A stretch of DNA of 64,000 nucleotides, taken from positions 3,337-67,336 of the forward strand of contig CAWHKQ010000011.1 in assembly GCA_963829925.1 (NCBI GenBank), read 5' to 3'. Shown here piece after piece: positions 5,793-13,969 of the stretch (position 1 is the first letter of the stretch; each line of letters opens with the position of its first letter). The notes beneath the pieces were generated by a model, which was given only the letters and a program-made list of their open reading frames with translations, was not told the origin of the DNA and did not search any database. Made by a program: the position numbers and the translations under genes. Origin of the DNA: an uncultured Acidobacteriota bacterium (lineage in GTDB: Bacteria; Acidobacteriota; Thermoanaerobaculia; UBA5066; Gp7-AA6).

Positions 5793-6068
5793 ATGAGCGA
5801 CGCCTTCCACCGCAAATGCCCGCTCTGCGGGGGCGAGATGCTCCGCTCGCGGTCGAACACGTCCGGATACACGTCGTATTTCTGGAAGAAGCCGTGGAAG
5901 ACCGGGCTCTTCTCCTGGGGAGTCGAGAAGGTCTTCCCGTGGGCCTGCATGGGGTGCGGCGTCGTCCTCTTCTACCTCGACCGGCTTCCGGCGGTCGCCG
6001 AGGAATACCGTTCCTCGCGCTCCGACGCCCGCGCGCCGGAGGGGTACCCGGCCACGATCAAGCCTTGA
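5793..6068 (+). CDS. Small Zn-ribbon-like protein (CPLC...CMGC)
   Basis: 91 aa ORF with two CxxC motifs; its stop overlaps the TTG start of the DAK2-DegV gene. Confidence 0.7.
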
Positions 6069-7876
6069 TCGCGATCTGCTACCTGGACGGCAACCGCCTG
6101 TCGCGGGCCGTGATCGCCGGCGCCCACTTCGTCGCCGAGCGGGCCGAGGCCGCTCAACAAGATCAACGTCTTTCCCGTTGCCGACGGCGACACCGGGACC
6201 AACGTCGCCGGCACGCTGCAGAAAATCGCCGCGGGCATCTCGCGCGTGCGGCAACGCCACATCCGGCGAGATGTCGAAGGCGCTCGCCGACCAGGCGATC
6301 GGCGGCGCGCGCGGCAACTCCGGCGCGATCCTGGCGCAGTTCTTCTGCGGGTTCTCCGAGGGACTTCCCGACTCTCCGCGCGTTTCGACGCGCGCCTTCG
6401 GAACGGCCGTCGTTCGGGCGGCCGAGTCGGCGTACAGCGCCATTGCGCGGCCGGTCGAGGGGACGATCCTGACGGTCATCCGCGACTGGGCGCGGCACGT
6501 GGCCGACCGGGCCGAGGAGTGCCGCGACTTCGGCGTGCTCCTGCCCGAGTCGCTCAAGGCCGCGAAAGCGCTCGCTCGAGAACACGCCCAAGCAGATGAA
6601 GGCTCCTCGCAGAAGGCGGGCGTCGTGGACGCCGGCGCCCAGGGCTTCGTCTATCTGCTCGAGGGCATCGTCAAGTACCTCCGGGAGGCGGCGCGGCTGG
6701 CGCCGCCGCCCGTCGAGGTCCGGGAGGACGTCCGCGCCGCGGTCTTCGACCGGACGCCGGACGTCGATTCTCTTCCGCTACTGCACCGAGGTCCTCCTCG
6801 AAGGCGACGCGATCGACCGCGACGCGCTGCGGCGCGAGGCGGCGCTGCTGGGCGATTCGATCGTGATCGCCGGAGGCGCGGCGCGCGATGCGGCTCCACG
6901 TGCACACCAACGAGCCCGAGAAGCTCTTCGCGATGGCCGCGCGGTTCGCGCGACGTCGCGCAGACCAAGGTCGAGGACATGCGCGCGCAGCACGAGTCGC
7001 GCTTCGACAAGAACCGCGCGGAGCGGGTCGGCATCGTGACGGATTCGACCTGCGACCTGCCCGGACTCGCATGCTCGAGGAGCTGGGCATCGGCGTCGTG
7101 CCCGTCCGGGTCTACTTCGGCTCCGAGAACTACCTCGACAAGGTCACGCTCACGCCGTCCGAGTTCTACGCGCGCTTCGCGGTGACCGACGAGGCCCCGA
7201 AGACCTCGCAGCCGCCGCCGGCGGACTTCACTCAGGTCTACGAGAACGTCGCGGCGCACGCGGGCTCGATCGTCTCCGTGCACCTGTCTTCGGCGGTCTC
7301 GGGGACCTACCAGGCGGCCTCGGTCGGCGCGCGGCCGGTACGAGAAGACGACGATCGAGCACGTCGACAGCCGCAACGTCTCGGTCGGCCTCGGCCTGGT
7401 CGTGCGGGCCGCCGCCGAAGCCGCCGCGTCGGGCAAGGGCCCGGACGAGGTGGCGGCGTATCGCGCGCGAAGCCGCCGGCGCGCGTGCGCACTTTCATCG
7501 CGGTGCCGACTCTCAAGCACCTGGTGCGCGGCGGCCGCGTGTCGCCGCTGCAAGCGGGCTCATCGCGAAGCTGCTGGGTCTGCTGCCGGTCCTGACGATC
7601 TCTTCGGAGGGGAAGGCGGAGCCGGCCGCGAAGGCCCGGGGCTACGACGCGGCTCGCCGGAAAATGATGAAGCTGCTCTTCGAGGCTGCGGGAGAGGGCG
7701 TGGCGACCTCGCGCCGCTTCGGCGTGGCGCACTGCGACGCGGAGGACCGGGCCGAGGAGGTCGCGCGCGAGATCCGGGAACGCTACCCGGAGACCGACGT
7801 GATGATCGTCGAGTGCGGCCCCGCGCTCGGCGCGCACGGCGGGCCCGGGGCGCTGGCGGTGGCGGTACTTCCGTAG
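6065..7876 (+). CDS. DAK2 domain-DegV domain fusion (fatty acid kinase FakA/FakB-like); frameshifted
   Basis: N-terminal [49 protein letters not shown]-terminal DegV motifs [44 protein letters not shown]. Confidence 0.88.
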
Positions 7877-7877
7877 C

Positions 7878-8098
7878 CGTCGCCTACCGTCGCCTCCGCT
7901 CGTACGGGATCTGCCGCCTTCGGCGGCACCGGCCCGCGGCTCGCCTGTGGGCTCGACCGCGGGCCTGGTCCCTCCCTCGCTGCGGCTCCCGCGGCGCGAG
8001 GCGTCCTCCGCTGCGCTGGCGGAGATAAACGCCGTGCGTCGCGCGACGTTGCCTACGGCCGGGGGTCTGCCTTCGGTGGTCGGCTGCCTCGCGCCGCG
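7878..8098 (+). repeat. Structured intergenic repeat, copy A (multi-hairpin, REP/MITE-like)
   Basis: Near-identical to 21794-21939 and to the reverse complement of 22024-22176. Hairpins tgccgcc-ttc-ggcggca and ggcccgcgg...ccgcgggcc, and a terminal stem cgcggcgcgaggc...gcctcgcgccgcg. Confidence 0.85.
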
Positions 8099-8135
8099 TA
8101 CAGAATCGCCAGAATGGCGCGCGAGTCTCTTTGCC

Positions 8136-8175
8136 TGTCATCCCGAGCCCGAGCGGAGCGAGGGAGAGGGATCCC
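8136..8175 (+). repeat. Single arm of a CGTC/TGTC-type palindromic repeat
   Basis: tgtcatcccgagcccgagcggagcgagggagagggatccc matches the left arm of 48614-48707. Confidence 0.65.
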
Positions 8176-8213
8176 GGACTCGACTCGTGAAACCCCCTCA
8201 GGCTCCTCGCCTG

Positions 8214-10327
<2,114 letters not shown>

Positions 10328-10468
10328 GGTGACTTGATTCTAAGCCGCGGCGGAAGCCCGGCTTCGCGGTTGACGGCTCAGGGTTTACGTCATAGATTGC
10401 CGGACTAGCGTGCGAAGCTTCCATCCCGCCTTGAGCATTCCGCGGCGAAAACTTGAGGGAGGAGAATC

Positions 10469-11786
10469 GTGAGACAGCGACTTCGCGTCCCCGTTCCGCG
10501 GGTCTTTCTCGTCCTGGCGATCGTGGGGTTCCTTTCCAGCGATCCGGCGCTGTCCTCCGGCTTCCAGGTCATGACGCACGGCGCGCGGGCGACGGGCATG
10601 GGCCTGGCGTACGCGGGCATCGGCGGAGACCCGACGGCGATCTTCTACAACCCGGCCGGCATCGGGTGGATGACGCACTTCGAGACGTACATCGGCGCGA
10701 ACTTCCTGACGCGCACCGACGGCGGCGTCGTGGGCGCCAATCCGTTCCCGGGCGAGGGCGCCACCGCGAACATCGACAAGCAGTGGTTTTTCGTCCCCGA
10801 CGGGTACGCGGTGCTGCCCCTGACCAACGAGCTGAACTTCGGGATCGGCGGCTTCGCGCACTACGGACTCGGCCTGCGCTGGGAGGACCCGGAGAACGCG
10901 CCGACCCGGTTCGTGTCGCAGAACGCCGTGATCCGGTCCCTCGACGTCAACCCGGTCTTCTCGTACCGGCTCTTTCCGCAGCTCTCGATCGCCGTGGGCG
11001 CCGACTACCGGTTCTCCAAGGTGCAGCTCGAGCGCAACCAGGCTCTCTTCGACCCGTTCACGCAGTCCTTCCAGGACGTGGCCCACATCAAGCTCAACAG
11101 CGACCTGCTCTCCAACGGCGGATGGGGCTGGAACGCCGGCATCATGTTCAAGCCGGTCGAGGGGCTGTCGATTGGAGCCGCCTACCGCTCCAGCATCACG
11201 ATCGACTACGAGGGCGAGGCCACCTTCACCCAGAGGCCGACGGGCAACCCCATCATCGACGCGCAGGTCGTCGCCTCGCTGCCGACCGGCAACCCGCCCG
11301 TCGAGACGCGCATCAAGTTCCCCTCGAGCGTGAACATCGGCGCCGGCATCCAGCTCGCCGGCCGGCTTCCTCCTCGGGCTCGAGGCCGACTGGACGGAAT
11401 GGTCGACCTTCGATGAGCTGAACATCATCTTTCCGACGCTCACCGGCCGCGACCTCGACCGCATCACGGCCTGGGAAGACTCCTGGGCCTATCGCGTGGG
11501 CCTGGAGAAGGCCTTCGGCGAGTTTGCCATCCGGGTCGGCTACTACTACGACAACACGCCGCAGCCCGACTTCGACGTCGGCCCGCTCCTGTCCGACAAC
11601 GACCGCAACGTCTACACGGCGGGGTTCGGCTACAACACCGAGGCGTTCGGCTTCGACGTGGGAGCGGCTCTCATCAAGTTCAAGGAACGCACCATCGCGC
11701 CGCCCACGCCGCAGACGGACAACTTTTTCGGGACCTACTCGGAGACCGGCCTGGTTCTGAGCGCGGGCCTCCGGATTGCCCTTTAG
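10469..11786 (+). CDS. OmpP1/FadL/TodX family outer-membrane long-chain fatty acid channel; one frameshift near 11370
   Basis: Signal peptide, SGFQVMTHGARATGMGLA, DPTAIFYNPAGI, and amphipathic beta-strands to the C-terminus (VLSAGLRIAL). Confidence 0.88.
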
Positions 11787-11800
11787 GGCGGAGGGAAGCC

Positions 11801-13308
11801 ATGACGAAGATCACGCTTCGCTCGATCGTTCTCGGCGCCGCGCTGGCGCTCGGTCTCGCGGCGCCCGCCGCCGCTCAATTCGGCAAGTACGTCGCGCTCG
11901 GCGACAGCCTCACGGCCGGAGTCGAGGGCAACTGCGTCGTCGAGCGCAACCAGCGGGCGTCCTTCCCGGCCGTCATCGCGGAGCAGATCGGCATCGACGA
12001 TTTCCAGCAGCCCCTGGTGCAGGAGGTGCCGCTTTCGAGCCCCCTGACGGGCAGCCCGTGTCTGGGCGCCGTGTTCATTCCTCCGTCGACCATCACCGTC
12101 GGCGCCGTTTCCCAGCAGGGCGCTCCGCTGAACCTGTCGCTGCCCCGGCCCTACGACAATCTGGGGCTTCCCGGCGCGCGCGTGCGGGACCTCGTCGACC
12201 TGAGGCACGGCAATCCCGGCGGCACGACCGTCGAAATGAGCGCGGCCCTCGTGCTCCGCAACGTCCCGGGCTCGCCCTTCGACGGGACCAACGCGGTGGA
12301 GCAGGCCAACATCCTCCAGCCGGACCTCGTGACCCTGTGGATCGGCAATAACGACGTCCTCGGCGCGGCGCTCGCCGGCGTGGTCGTGGACGGCGTGACG
12401 CTGACCCCGGTGGCGGCGTTCACCGCAGAAGTACGACGAGGTCATGGCCGCGATGGCGGTCGGCGGCCGGACGATCGTCGGGGCCAACATCCCGGACGTC
12501 ACGGCGATCCCCTTCACGACGACGATTCCCGGGATCCTGATCAACCCGGCGACCCGGCAGCCCGTGATCATCAACGGAAACACGGTGCCGCTGCTCGGCG
12601 AGGGCAACGACGCGTATCCGTGCGAGCCGGTCCCGCCGGATCATGGCTGTCCCCTTCCCGCCGGAACGCTCGTGACGCTGCCGGCCTCGGCGCTCCTGGC
12701 GCAGGGGATCGGCGTGCCGGTCGCCGCCGGCGGCACGGGCCAGCCTCTCCCGGACGGCCGCTTCGTCCCCCCGGCCATGCTGGTATCCGGCGTGACGCTC
12801 TATCCGAACGAAGTCGCGGCGATCGTGACGCGCACCGACGAGATCAACGCCGTCATCGCGGCCGAGATCGGGGATCCGCTCGTCGACATCCATGCGTTCT
12901 TCGAGGACATCAAGGCCCACGGCTACCACGTCGGGGGGCTGACGCTGACCCCTTCGTTTTTGACCGGCGGCATCTTCTCCGCCGACGGGTTCCATGCCGT
13001 CGTCGATCGGGTACACGGTGATCGCCGACGAGTTCATCAAGGAGATGAACGACTCGCTCGCGACCGACATCCCGCGCCCGGATTTCTCCCACGTCCTCTT
13101 CACGCCCAACGTGCCCGTCTCCGTGCCCGCCACGGTCCCTCTGACCGACGGCGGGATCTGGGGCTACGGAATTTCGATGTGGAAAGACCTGCTCTCGGAC
13201 GTGACCCCGGCCTGGGGCCTGGTCATTCAGTACCCGGAGACCGTCCGGGCGACGCCCCGCGAGGGTGCAAGAGGGACCCGGACCGTGACCCGGGGCGAAG
13301 GGGACTGA
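11801..13308 (+). CDS. Secreted SGNH/GDSL hydrolase (lipase-like); frameshifted
   Basis: Signal peptide; block I ALGDSLTAG, block III WIGNND, block V DGFHP (across a frameshift). Confidence 0.85.
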
Positions 13309-13329
13309 CGCCCGACCGCGCGATTTGAG

Positions 13330-13359
13330 AGCCCCGGGCTGCCCCCGGGGCTTTTTGTT
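13330..13359 (+). terminator. Rho-independent terminator after the FadL-SGNH operon
   Basis: agccccggg-ctgcc-cccggggct followed by a T-tract. Confidence 0.8.
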
Positions 13360-13405: not shown

Positions 13406-13969
13406 ATGGCCATGATTCCGGCGACACAGCTGCGGAGCGGGATGCTCATCATTCACAACGGCGAGCTCCACCGCGTCCACGAGATGATCCACAAGACGCC
13501 CGGCAACCTCCGGGGATTCGTTCAGGCCAAGATGCGCAACGTGCGCAGCGGATCGATGAACGAGCACCGGTTCGGCTCGACCGACCGCGTCGAGAAGGCC
13601 TCCCTCGACGAGCGGGAGATGGAGTACCTCTATTCCGACTCGGCCGGCCACCACTTCATGGACCAGAGCTCCTACGACCAACTCACCCTCTCCGACGAGG
13701 TGATCGGCGAGCAGATGAAGTACCTGCTTCCCAACACCGTCATCCACGTCGACTTCTACGAGGAGAACCCCGTCGGCATCGAGCTGCCCAACACCGTGAC
13801 TCTGAAGGTCATCGAGACCCAGCCCGGGATGAAGGGCGCCACGGCGTCGGCGTCGTACAAGCCGGCGACTCTCGAGACGGGACTCCAGGTGATGGTTCCG
13901 CAGTTCGTCGACGCGGGGATCCGCATCAAGATCGACACTCGGGACAACTCCTACGTCGAACGGGCGTAA
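13406..13969 (+). CDS. efp: Elongation factor P
   Basis: Typical length and motifs (LEYLY-like MEYLYSD, YKPATLETG, VPQFVDAG, KIDTR); the loop reads TPGNLRG. Confidence 0.95.
   Translation: MAMIPATQLRSGMLIIHNGELHRVHEMIHKTPGNLRGFVQAKMRNVRSGSMNEHRFGSTDRVEKASLDEREMEYLYSDSAGHHFMDQSSYDQLTLSDEVIGEQMKYLLPNTVIHVDFYEENPVGIELPNTVTLKVIETQPGMKGATASASYKPATLETGLQVMVPQFVDAGIRIKIDTRDNSYVERA

Follow-up and report, generated by a model that had tools for sequence, protein, structure and literature searches.

The 64,000-nucleotide stretch analyzed here (the window, located on contig 11 of a 3.8-Mb assembly of 16 contigs from an uncultured Acidobacteriota bacterium) has a G+C content of 69-73% and contains, on its plus strand, a gene that joins Dak2 and DegV domains into one putative fatty acid kinase (6065-7876), followed by genes for a FadL-type outer-membrane channel and an SGNH hydrolase (10469-13308). 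We consider it likely that these represent two separable lipid-handling units that lie side by side on a fixed gcvT-H-PA-PB ... efp-M23 gene order, conserved within one order of the Thermoanaerobaculia, the class to which the source organism belongs.

Domain structure and distribution of the putative single-chain kinase

The architecture of the kinase is seen in P0026, a clean orthologue of 597 residues in one open reading frame (ORF) with the same neighbors as in the window, taken from a 98%-complete genome of the same genus. Pfam assigns P0026 a Dak2 domain (134.6 bits), a FakA-like_M domain (PF21645; 68.2 bits), and a DegV domain (253.2 bits). The last of these is full length (residues 318-596) and occupies the position normally held by FakA_C, with the FakB-type domain beginning ~10 residues past the middle-domain helix, exactly where FakA_C would start. 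FakA_C is the FakB-binding domain; FakA_N and the middle domain alone form an active kinase, and loss of FakA_C raises the Km for FakB about tenfold (PMC9136124). The same study lists the metal and nucleotide ligands of Staphylococcus aureus FakA and reports that R173 of FakB1 is needed for phosphotransfer.

Across 24 diverse fusions, the ATP/Mg residues N34, D40, D42, T43, N84, and D187 are invariant and correspond to N32, D38, D40, T41, N82, and D185 of S. aureus FakA in an alignment that extends to Streptococcus suis FakA. The middle domain is invariant at C237, H275, and H277 (C240, H282, and H284 in S. aureus), and the DegV domain retains the TSQP, SGT, GGR, and H-GPG motifs. Here, the carboxylate-site residues T376, S408, and R486 are invariant or nearly so, and the carboxylate His belongs to the H-GPG motif, which can be aligned with S. 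aureus FakB2 and Thermus thermophilus DegV. In an AlphaFold2 (AF2) model of the fusion (mean predicted local distance difference test score, pLDDT, of 89), the N domain superposes on S. aureus FakA_N with template modeling (TM) scores of 0.93-0.96 and a root mean square deviation of 0.9 Å, and the C domain superposes on crystal structures of fatty-acid-loaded FakB1, FakB2, and DegV with TM scores of 0.85-0.89 over ~283 columns and has the two-lobed EDD fold of DegV together with the inserts absent from FakA_C. Judged from these residues and predicted folds, the fused gene would encode a genuine FakA-FakB single chain with its catalytic residues intact.

The fusion scores 298 bits against the NCBI FakA model TIGR03599 (cut-off 396 bits), where it covers only positions 2-337 of 530, and 278 bits against the DegV model TIGR00762 (cut-off 99.7 bits). 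It falls below the FakA cut-off because FakA_C is missing and passes the DegV model, hence the usual NCBI name of "DegV family protein"; one JGI record reads [quoted passage not shown] In P0026, the DegV domain additionally gives a secondary match to FakA-like_C (PF13684; residues 375-577) of 36 bits, above the Pfam cut-off. Among the other three of four fusions compared, one reaches 43 bits (above the cut-off), one matches weakly, and one does not match, and the four stand-alone DegV proteins scored from the class all stay below this cut-off. This small sample hints that FakA_C may descend from a DegV domain like that of the fusions.

The fusion is the sole Dak2 and the sole DegV locus of the window's genome, in which we found no stand-alone DegV gene. 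Both plsX and plsY, which the first-pass annotation had suggested looking for, are present, PlsY at C16:47469-48001 and PlsX at C15:234080-234988, each frameshifted. That annotation had also pointed to homologues as a check on the fusion, and these bear it out. A 101-residue DegV piece used as query retrieves hundreds of clean orthologues of 594-602 residues with Dak2, FakA-like_M, and DegV in one ORF, the named records among which are Thermoanaerobaculia, and more than 130 end-to-end matches at 34-50% identity were obtained from 1.84 billion cluster representatives (50% identity). In a scan of species-representative genomes, from which 80 fusion loci were kept, full-length fusions are found in Acidobacteriota, Bacteroidota, Gemmatimonadota, Desulfobacterota, Spirochaetota, Marinimicrobia, Fidelibacterota, Cloacimonadota, and Gammaproteobacteria, the last of these including cultured Xanthomonadales (Lysobacter and Pseudoxanthomonas).

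In 8 of 47 distant diderm loci, plsY adjoins the fusion, in seven of them downstream and on the same strand, with a median distance of -4 bp. These loci derive from lineages that include Spirochaetota, Fidelibacterota, Bacteroidia, Acetothermia, and a Lysobacter isolate. This gene context in distant lineages supports the predicted production of acyl-phosphate and is the strongest independent support for it.

Other neighbors were noted as well. Of the 47 distant diderm loci, eight encode a DUF1295 membrane protein (steroid-reductase/ICMT-like) adjacent to the fusion (L020, L024, L025, L027, L031, L034, L043, and L045), downstream and on the same strand in seven, and the immediate neighbors of distant fusions also include three lipocalin (Blc-type) and two patatin genes. 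The neighbors in L101 and L102, from two other families of the class, are uninformative (an ABC ATPase, a GGDEF protein, a phosphoesterase, and unknowns). Some genomes of the class (G041, G045, G097, G110, G138, and others) match only the DegV half of the query (E-values of 1e-28 to 1e-40), and the threshold applied gave no Dak2 match in them; these may harbor a stand-alone DegV without an obvious kinase partner.

The first-pass annotation placed a DAK2-DegV fusion at 6065-7876, and its domains, coordinates, and strand stand, but there is no open frame: no ORF spans this interval, and three-frame translation gives Dak2, FakA-middle, and DegV sequence that switches frames. An eight-sequence alignment of the window and seven species of the same genus reveals, in the kinase gene of the window, 12 frame-breaking insertions of 1-2 nt that no congener shares and a single in-frame insertion of 3 nt, whereas no deletion is unique to the window; a blastn indel count against the closest congener, unaligned upstream of 5687, was set aside as too noisy at 84% identity. 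The density of these changes, 12 in 1.8 kb as compared to one in fadL (near 11362) and two in the SGNH gene, is what might be expected of a pseudogene decaying in this genome. We judge this very improbable, however, since all 12 changes are insertions, a pattern of technical error, and the translation between breaks remains 57-90% identical to orthologues. Furthermore, the essential plsX and plsY genes, elsewhere in the genome, are broken too, as are gcvT and gcvPB, the neighboring Ser/Thr kinase gene is hit as badly (by a noisy count), and marker completeness is 57% for these 16 contigs versus 93-98% in congeners. On these grounds, the frame breaks in the window are most likely assembly errors, and because they interrupt many genes, ORF-based readings of this genome need correction against homologues. 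Insertions of 1-2 nt are frequent genome-wide (window positions 6152-7548 included) and mostly lie beside C/G dinucleotides, e.g., CC[G]CT, CC[G]GC, GC[G]CG, and CG[CT]GC.

The FadL-SGNH pair and the layout of the window

Genes were placed by tblastn with clean orthologues, and families were called by Pfam on fragments. Families f1 (that of the window), f2, and f3 belong to one order; f5, f8, and f11 are other families of the class. The features are as follows.

5793-6068, plus strand: 91-residue ORF with two CxxC pairs, zinc-ribbon-like (86% identity to the 91-residue ORF preceding the L004 orthologue)
6065-7876, plus strand: putative single-chain fatty acid kinase gene (Pfam on fragments; tblastn with 597-residue orthologues), with approximate domains Dak2/FakA_N at ~6170-6675, FakA-like_M at ~6770-7000, and DegV/FakB at ~7025-7873
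8217-10309, minus strand: Ser/Thr protein kinase with C-terminal GAF domain, divergent from fadL, frameshifted (Pkinase and GAF matches; tblastn in two frames)
10370-10398, plus strand: sigma-70-like promoter match TTGACG-17-TAGATT, 70 nt 5' of fadL (consensus match only)
10469-11783, plus strand: FadL/OmpP1-family outer-membrane channel (Pfam Toluene_X, 100.6 bits on a fragment; 60-65% identity to a 436-residue orthologue)
11801-13308, plus strand: SGNH/GDSL hydrolase of ~500 residues with large inserts (Lipase_GDSL match)
13331-13359, plus strand: intrinsic-terminator-like hairpin and U-tract between the SGNH gene and efp (sequence reading and folding)

The fadL gene begins with a GTG start after GGAGGAG and encodes a signal-like N-terminus, followed by GFQV..., the start of the hatch, and an NPA motif; the GFQV...NPA stretch aligns to 3DWO. 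The best solved relatives of this channel are the Pseudomonas aeruginosa FadL homologue (3DWO; 6.8e-14) and Escherichia coli FadL (1T16; 3e-8), and the best NCBIfam match is the FadL equivalog model at ~80.6 bits (cut-off 585 bits). A TodX/TbuX-type channel is provisionally disfavored, as no such chain matched even at E ≤ 10 in a search that covered solved structures only.

In the SGNH protein, G32, D33, and S34 (the block I GDS), N187, D396, and H399 are invariant in 32 homologues, and the catalytic residues are likewise invariant in 21 orthologues of the class. Its N-terminus, MTKITLRSIVLGAALALGLAAPAAAQ followed by FGKYVALGDSLTAG, is signal-like and ends in AAAQ; from this feature, read by eye, we predict that the hydrolase is secreted. 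Searched against solved structures, the protein sequence finds nothing at E ≤ 1, its AF2 model (pLDDT of 81) matches the general SGNH fold only, and weakly (TM scores of 0.26-0.6 on the target side), and the ESM Atlas returns only "GDSL-like" clusters, mostly from Acidobacteriota.

The hairpin at 13331-13359 folds with a free energy of -23.6 kcal/mol (z of -4.2), with 1 of 200 shuffles folding as well, and is followed by UUUUUGUU. The pattern scanner did not report this terminator, and the hairpin was established by reading and folding. The region contains two sigma-70-like sites versus 0.3 expected from shuffles, and a similar site, TTGACT-17-AAGAAT, lies in the spacer between the kinase gene and fadL in the f2 genome of L092 (consensus match only).

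FadL is found in 124 and SGNH in 121 of 151 class genomes, with coordinates that put the SGNH gene immediately after FadL. The pair is intact in 10 loci of other families of the class, none of which has gcv, efp, or M23 nearby. A 251-genome sample of the phylum yielded 30 FadL-SGNH loci, two of them cut by contig ends, and in all 28 with enough sequence FadL lies directly upstream of SGNH, while the flanking genes vary. The first-pass annotation had read fadL and the SGNH gene as one unit closed by a terminator, and both the conserved pairing and the hairpin agree with that reading. As far as can be told from sequence and gene order, the two genes form a real and conserved operon, served by a promoter-like site and a terminator of their own. 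To our knowledge, the fixed pairing is undescribed, although both proteins belong to known families. FadL followed by an SGNH protein of ~430-510 residues is an invariant pair in several Acidobacteriota classes, whatever the flanks (window 10469-13308; L104-L143).

Upstream of the 91-residue ORF and the kinase gene lie gcvT, gcvH, gcvPA, and gcvPB; on the far side of the hairpin, efp begins at 13412 and is followed by an M23 peptidase gene. The TGA stop of the 91-residue ORF overlaps the TTG start of the kinase gene (TTGA). This ORF occurs in f1 and f3, was not found in f2 or in the distant fusion loci, and is assigned to no family by Pfam or NCBIfam; perhaps it acts with the kinase as a lineage-specific partner. 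A GC-rich spacer of 340 bp (7877-8216) separates the kinase gene from the Ser/Thr protein kinase gene, which is positioned between the fusion and fadL, and divergent from the latter, just as the first-pass annotation described. This gene holds the same position in f1 and f3 and is absent from the interval between the kinase gene and fadL in f2. The distance from the fusion to FadL, given previously as 2.6 kb, measures 2.59 kb.

Linkage of the two units and rival explanations

A full-length fusion is present in ~47 of the 151 class genomes. In 16 of the 17 f1 genomes, the kinase and FadL share a contig and are separated by 2.3-4.1 kb, and in f3 they are 3.5-9.8 kb apart in all three. The block gcvT-H-PA-PB/kinase/FadL-SGNH/efp/M23 is conserved in that order as a whole, and thus the kinase is linked as tightly to gcvPB and efp as it is to FadL. 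Nine of 16 f2 genomes show no match to the fusion; two f2 genomes that are 97% complete, in which no DegV family gene was found, keep gcvPB running straight into FadL-SGNH-efp. In f8 and f11 the fusion and FadL are on different contigs; of the 35 genomes of f5, 33 carry FadL-SGNH, and no fusion was found in any. The class, phylum, and L114 tallies include the unpublished genomes G004 (f1), G104 (f3), and G135 (f5); without these, the counts become 15 of 16 linked for f1, 2 of 2 for f3, and 32 of 34 for f5, and the conclusions are unchanged. At 79 other fusion loci, of which 46 from other diderm lineages encode a full-length fusion, neither a FadL nor an SGNH gene was found within 10 kb, first by single queries and then by profile hidden Markov models built from 50 and 52 orthologues.

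Synteny of the fusion, fadL, and the SGNH gene, one of the points raised in the first-pass annotation, therefore holds through one order and is lost beyond it, in the other families and at these 79 loci. That annotation had named unlinked genes in relatives as grounds against a common route, and this is what we find beyond the order. We conclude that the proximity of the kinase to FadL is inherited gene order within one order and not evidence of mutual dependence. Within genus g7, the fusion is found in 6 of 10 species, and in G112 (L099) and G096 (L100) it is cleanly absent from the gcvPB/fadL junction that it occupies in carriers L092-L094; its presence in g7 is a recent gain or loss polymorphism.

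The first-pass annotation had combined lipolysis, FadL import, and Fak activation into one route. As a dedicated pathway, the SGNH lipase would free fatty acids, FadL would import them, and the kinase would make acyl-phosphate for PlsY/PlsX, replacing FadD. The parts are real, and a single salvage route is biochemically coherent and plausible, but its genomic link is weak and genomics does not establish a dedicated three-part route, which we regard as possible but doubtful. All components are present, including the sole Dak2/DegV locus of the genome, an SGNH protein with intact catalytic residues, and a channel that among solved structures resembles FadL rather than TodX, and across three families of one order the distance between kinase and FadL remains 0.2-10 kb despite rearrangement (a Ser/Thr kinase gene inserted in f1 and f3, direct kinase-fadL adjacency in f2). 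However, this linkage traces to one ancestral arrangement that ties gcvPB and efp to the kinase as tightly, and the genes are unlinked outside the order. FadL-SGNH persists without the kinase in the two f2 genomes and in f5 and has its own promoter-like site and terminator, and in many phyla the kinase is maintained with no FadL close by and pairs with plsY instead. A same-genus genome also harbors four AMP-binding enzymes, one of which is encoded ~3 kb from a 3-hydroxyacyl-CoA dehydrogenase match.

Those enzymes could instead form a catabolic sink, with FadL-SGNH feeding an acyl-CoA synthetase and beta-oxidation and the kinase mainly recycling fatty acids from membrane lipid turnover, a role ascribed to Fak in S. 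aureus (PMC5539427). We entertain this tentatively. The same-genus genome has four strong 3-hydroxyacyl-CoA dehydrogenase matches alongside the four AMP-binding ligases (in G024, the ligase at C1:496259-497440 and the match at 492968-493501 are the neighboring pair), and FadL-SGNH is far more widespread than the kinase; on the other hand, the ligases are no more than candidates for a long-chain FadD, and the scheme is compatible with the two-unit explanation rather than opposed to it. It is very unlikely that the kinase acts on another carboxylate, e.g., octanoate or lipoate for GcvH, or that FadL-SGNH handles a hydrophobic ester other than a fatty acid ester. GcvH is encoded just upstream, only a few tens of bases separate gcvPB from the start of the f2 kinase gene, a biotin/lipoate ligase domain occurs in 2 of 121 neighbors of distant fusions, and the SGNH fold matches include carbohydrate esterases. 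Against this, linkage to gcv does not extend beyond the same order, plsY is the partner that recurs across phyla, and the carboxylate-binding residues of FakB are retained in the DegV domain, which can be superposed on FakB structures loaded with long-chain fatty acids.

Several observations weigh against our preferred explanation of two separable units. In all seven kinase-bearing f2 genomes, fadL starts 169-188 bp after the kinase gene on the same strand, and no terminator was found in this spacer, so that read-through and co-expression are possible there. Every fusion-bearing class genome also has FadL-SGNH, although this co-occurrence is weak evidence since the base rate is ~80% and related genomes are not independent. 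The AF2 model of the SGNH protein matches lipases/lysophospholipases and carbohydrate esterases about equally, and our literature search found no measured activity or characterization of any fused Dak2-DegV protein. Finally, the kinase gene is not intact in the assembly, and a function in the organism assumes that the insertions are errors.

In the two-unit explanation, the first unit consists of the 91-residue ORF, which would be translationally coupled to a single-chain fatty acid kinase that fuses the N-terminal (ATP/Mg) and middle (Cys-His-His, dimerization) domains of FakA to a complete DegV/FakB in the FakA_C position. The DegV domain would take a free fatty acid from the inner membrane, and the carboxylate would be phosphorylated by the Dak2 domain, which in a dimer might belong to the other chain; the resulting acyl-phosphate would pass to PlsY or, via PlsX, to acyl-acyl carrier protein. 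Since the FakB-type domain sits exactly at the FakA_C position, the covalent tether could replace docking, i.e., it would substitute for the docking of FakB by FakA_C. In the second unit, the fadL-SGNH operon, an exported Ser-Asp-His esterase would release or trim a hydrophobic acyl compound, which the FadL channel would carry across the outer membrane. What the analysis establishes is the domains and conserved residues of the proteins, their modeled folds, the order and distribution of the genes, and that plsX and plsY are present; every enzymatic activity, and any flow of fatty acids from the second unit to the first, is inferred. A broader proposal, which we think improbable and offer as speculation, is that single-chain Dak2-M-DegV proteins would be the main means of activating free fatty acids in many diderm groups, among them Acidobacteriota, Bacteroidota, Gemmatimonadota, Xanthomonadales, and Spirochaetota, supplying PlsY directly with acyl-phosphate, that the kinase would be functionally joined to esterase-FadL import in this order as a hybrid of Gram-negative uptake through the outer membrane and "Gram-positive" activation, and that the fusion would be the undegraded source of Firmicutes FakA_C.

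The one-piece kinase is widespread in diderms and often overlaps plsY, which suggests that the acyl-phosphate route is much wider than thought. The kinase hypothesis is testable in the cultured Lysobacter and Pseudoxanthomonas carriers and bears on the efficacy of fatty acid synthesis inhibitors in such bacteria and on lipid recycling by soil Acidobacteriota. The FadL-SGNH pair is a second, separate lead, in which the hydrolase may be a dedicated esterase partner of the channel. For the window itself the implications are more modest: insertion errors abound in its assembly, and inherited gene order is the basis of the supposed three-gene route.

Comparison with known systems

The exported GDSL/SGNH lipases represented by the P. 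aeruginosa EstA passenger domain (3KVN), Legionella PlaA (8A24), and Vibrio thermolabile hemolysin (8H09) share with the window's SGNH protein the fold, the block I GDS Ser, the block III Asn, the block V DxxH, and a signal-like N-terminus. The window's protein differs in its ~200 extra residues in inserts, the lack of an autotransporter barrel, and its fixed pairing with FadL. The channel in turn shares with the FadL of the E. coli FadL-FadD system (1T16, 3DWO) the FadL/OmpP1 barrel, a signal-like N-terminus, the N-terminal GFQ hatch, and the NPA motif, but falls far below the equivalog cut-off and is thus a family member and not an orthologue; window-type FadL always has the SGNH gene directly after it, and no fadD lies beside it.

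The window's kinase is an uncharacterized fused variant of the known Fak system. It has in common with Firmicutes FakA/FakB (S. aureus and S. suis; 7W7H, 7RM7, 8VIP, and 4X9X; PMC9136124, PMC10848957) the Dak2 metal and nucleotide ligands, the middle-domain Cys-His-His cluster, the Thr/Ser/His/Arg carboxylate site of DegV, and the expected product sinks PlsX and PlsY. In contrast to the Firmicutes proteins, the window's type is one chain of ~597 residues in which a FakB-type domain replaces FakA_C, covalently fused to the Dak2 and middle domains where a stand-alone FakB would shuttle, and it occurs in diderm phyla. A 2023 review presents FakAB as a Gram-positive strategy and FadD or acyl-acyl carrier protein synthetases as the Gram-negative way (PMC10146087). 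In the published literature that we found, the Dak2-DegV architecture is mentioned and not characterized. As cited in a preprint (bioRxiv 10.1101/2021.02.16.431466), it was mentioned by Erni et al. in 2006; the window's gene, with the same architecture, is a member of that large family. Our analysis adds the coupling to plsY, the diderm-wide spread, and the order-specific position beside fadL. A precedent for fused and split EDD and Dak2 domains exists in the same superfamily, where the single-chain dihydroxyacetone kinase of Citrobacter compares with the split DhaK/DhaL of E. coli (PMC10848957); the Citrobacter enzyme has its domains in the opposite order (DhaK-DhaL) and acts on dihydroxyacetone and not on a fatty acid.

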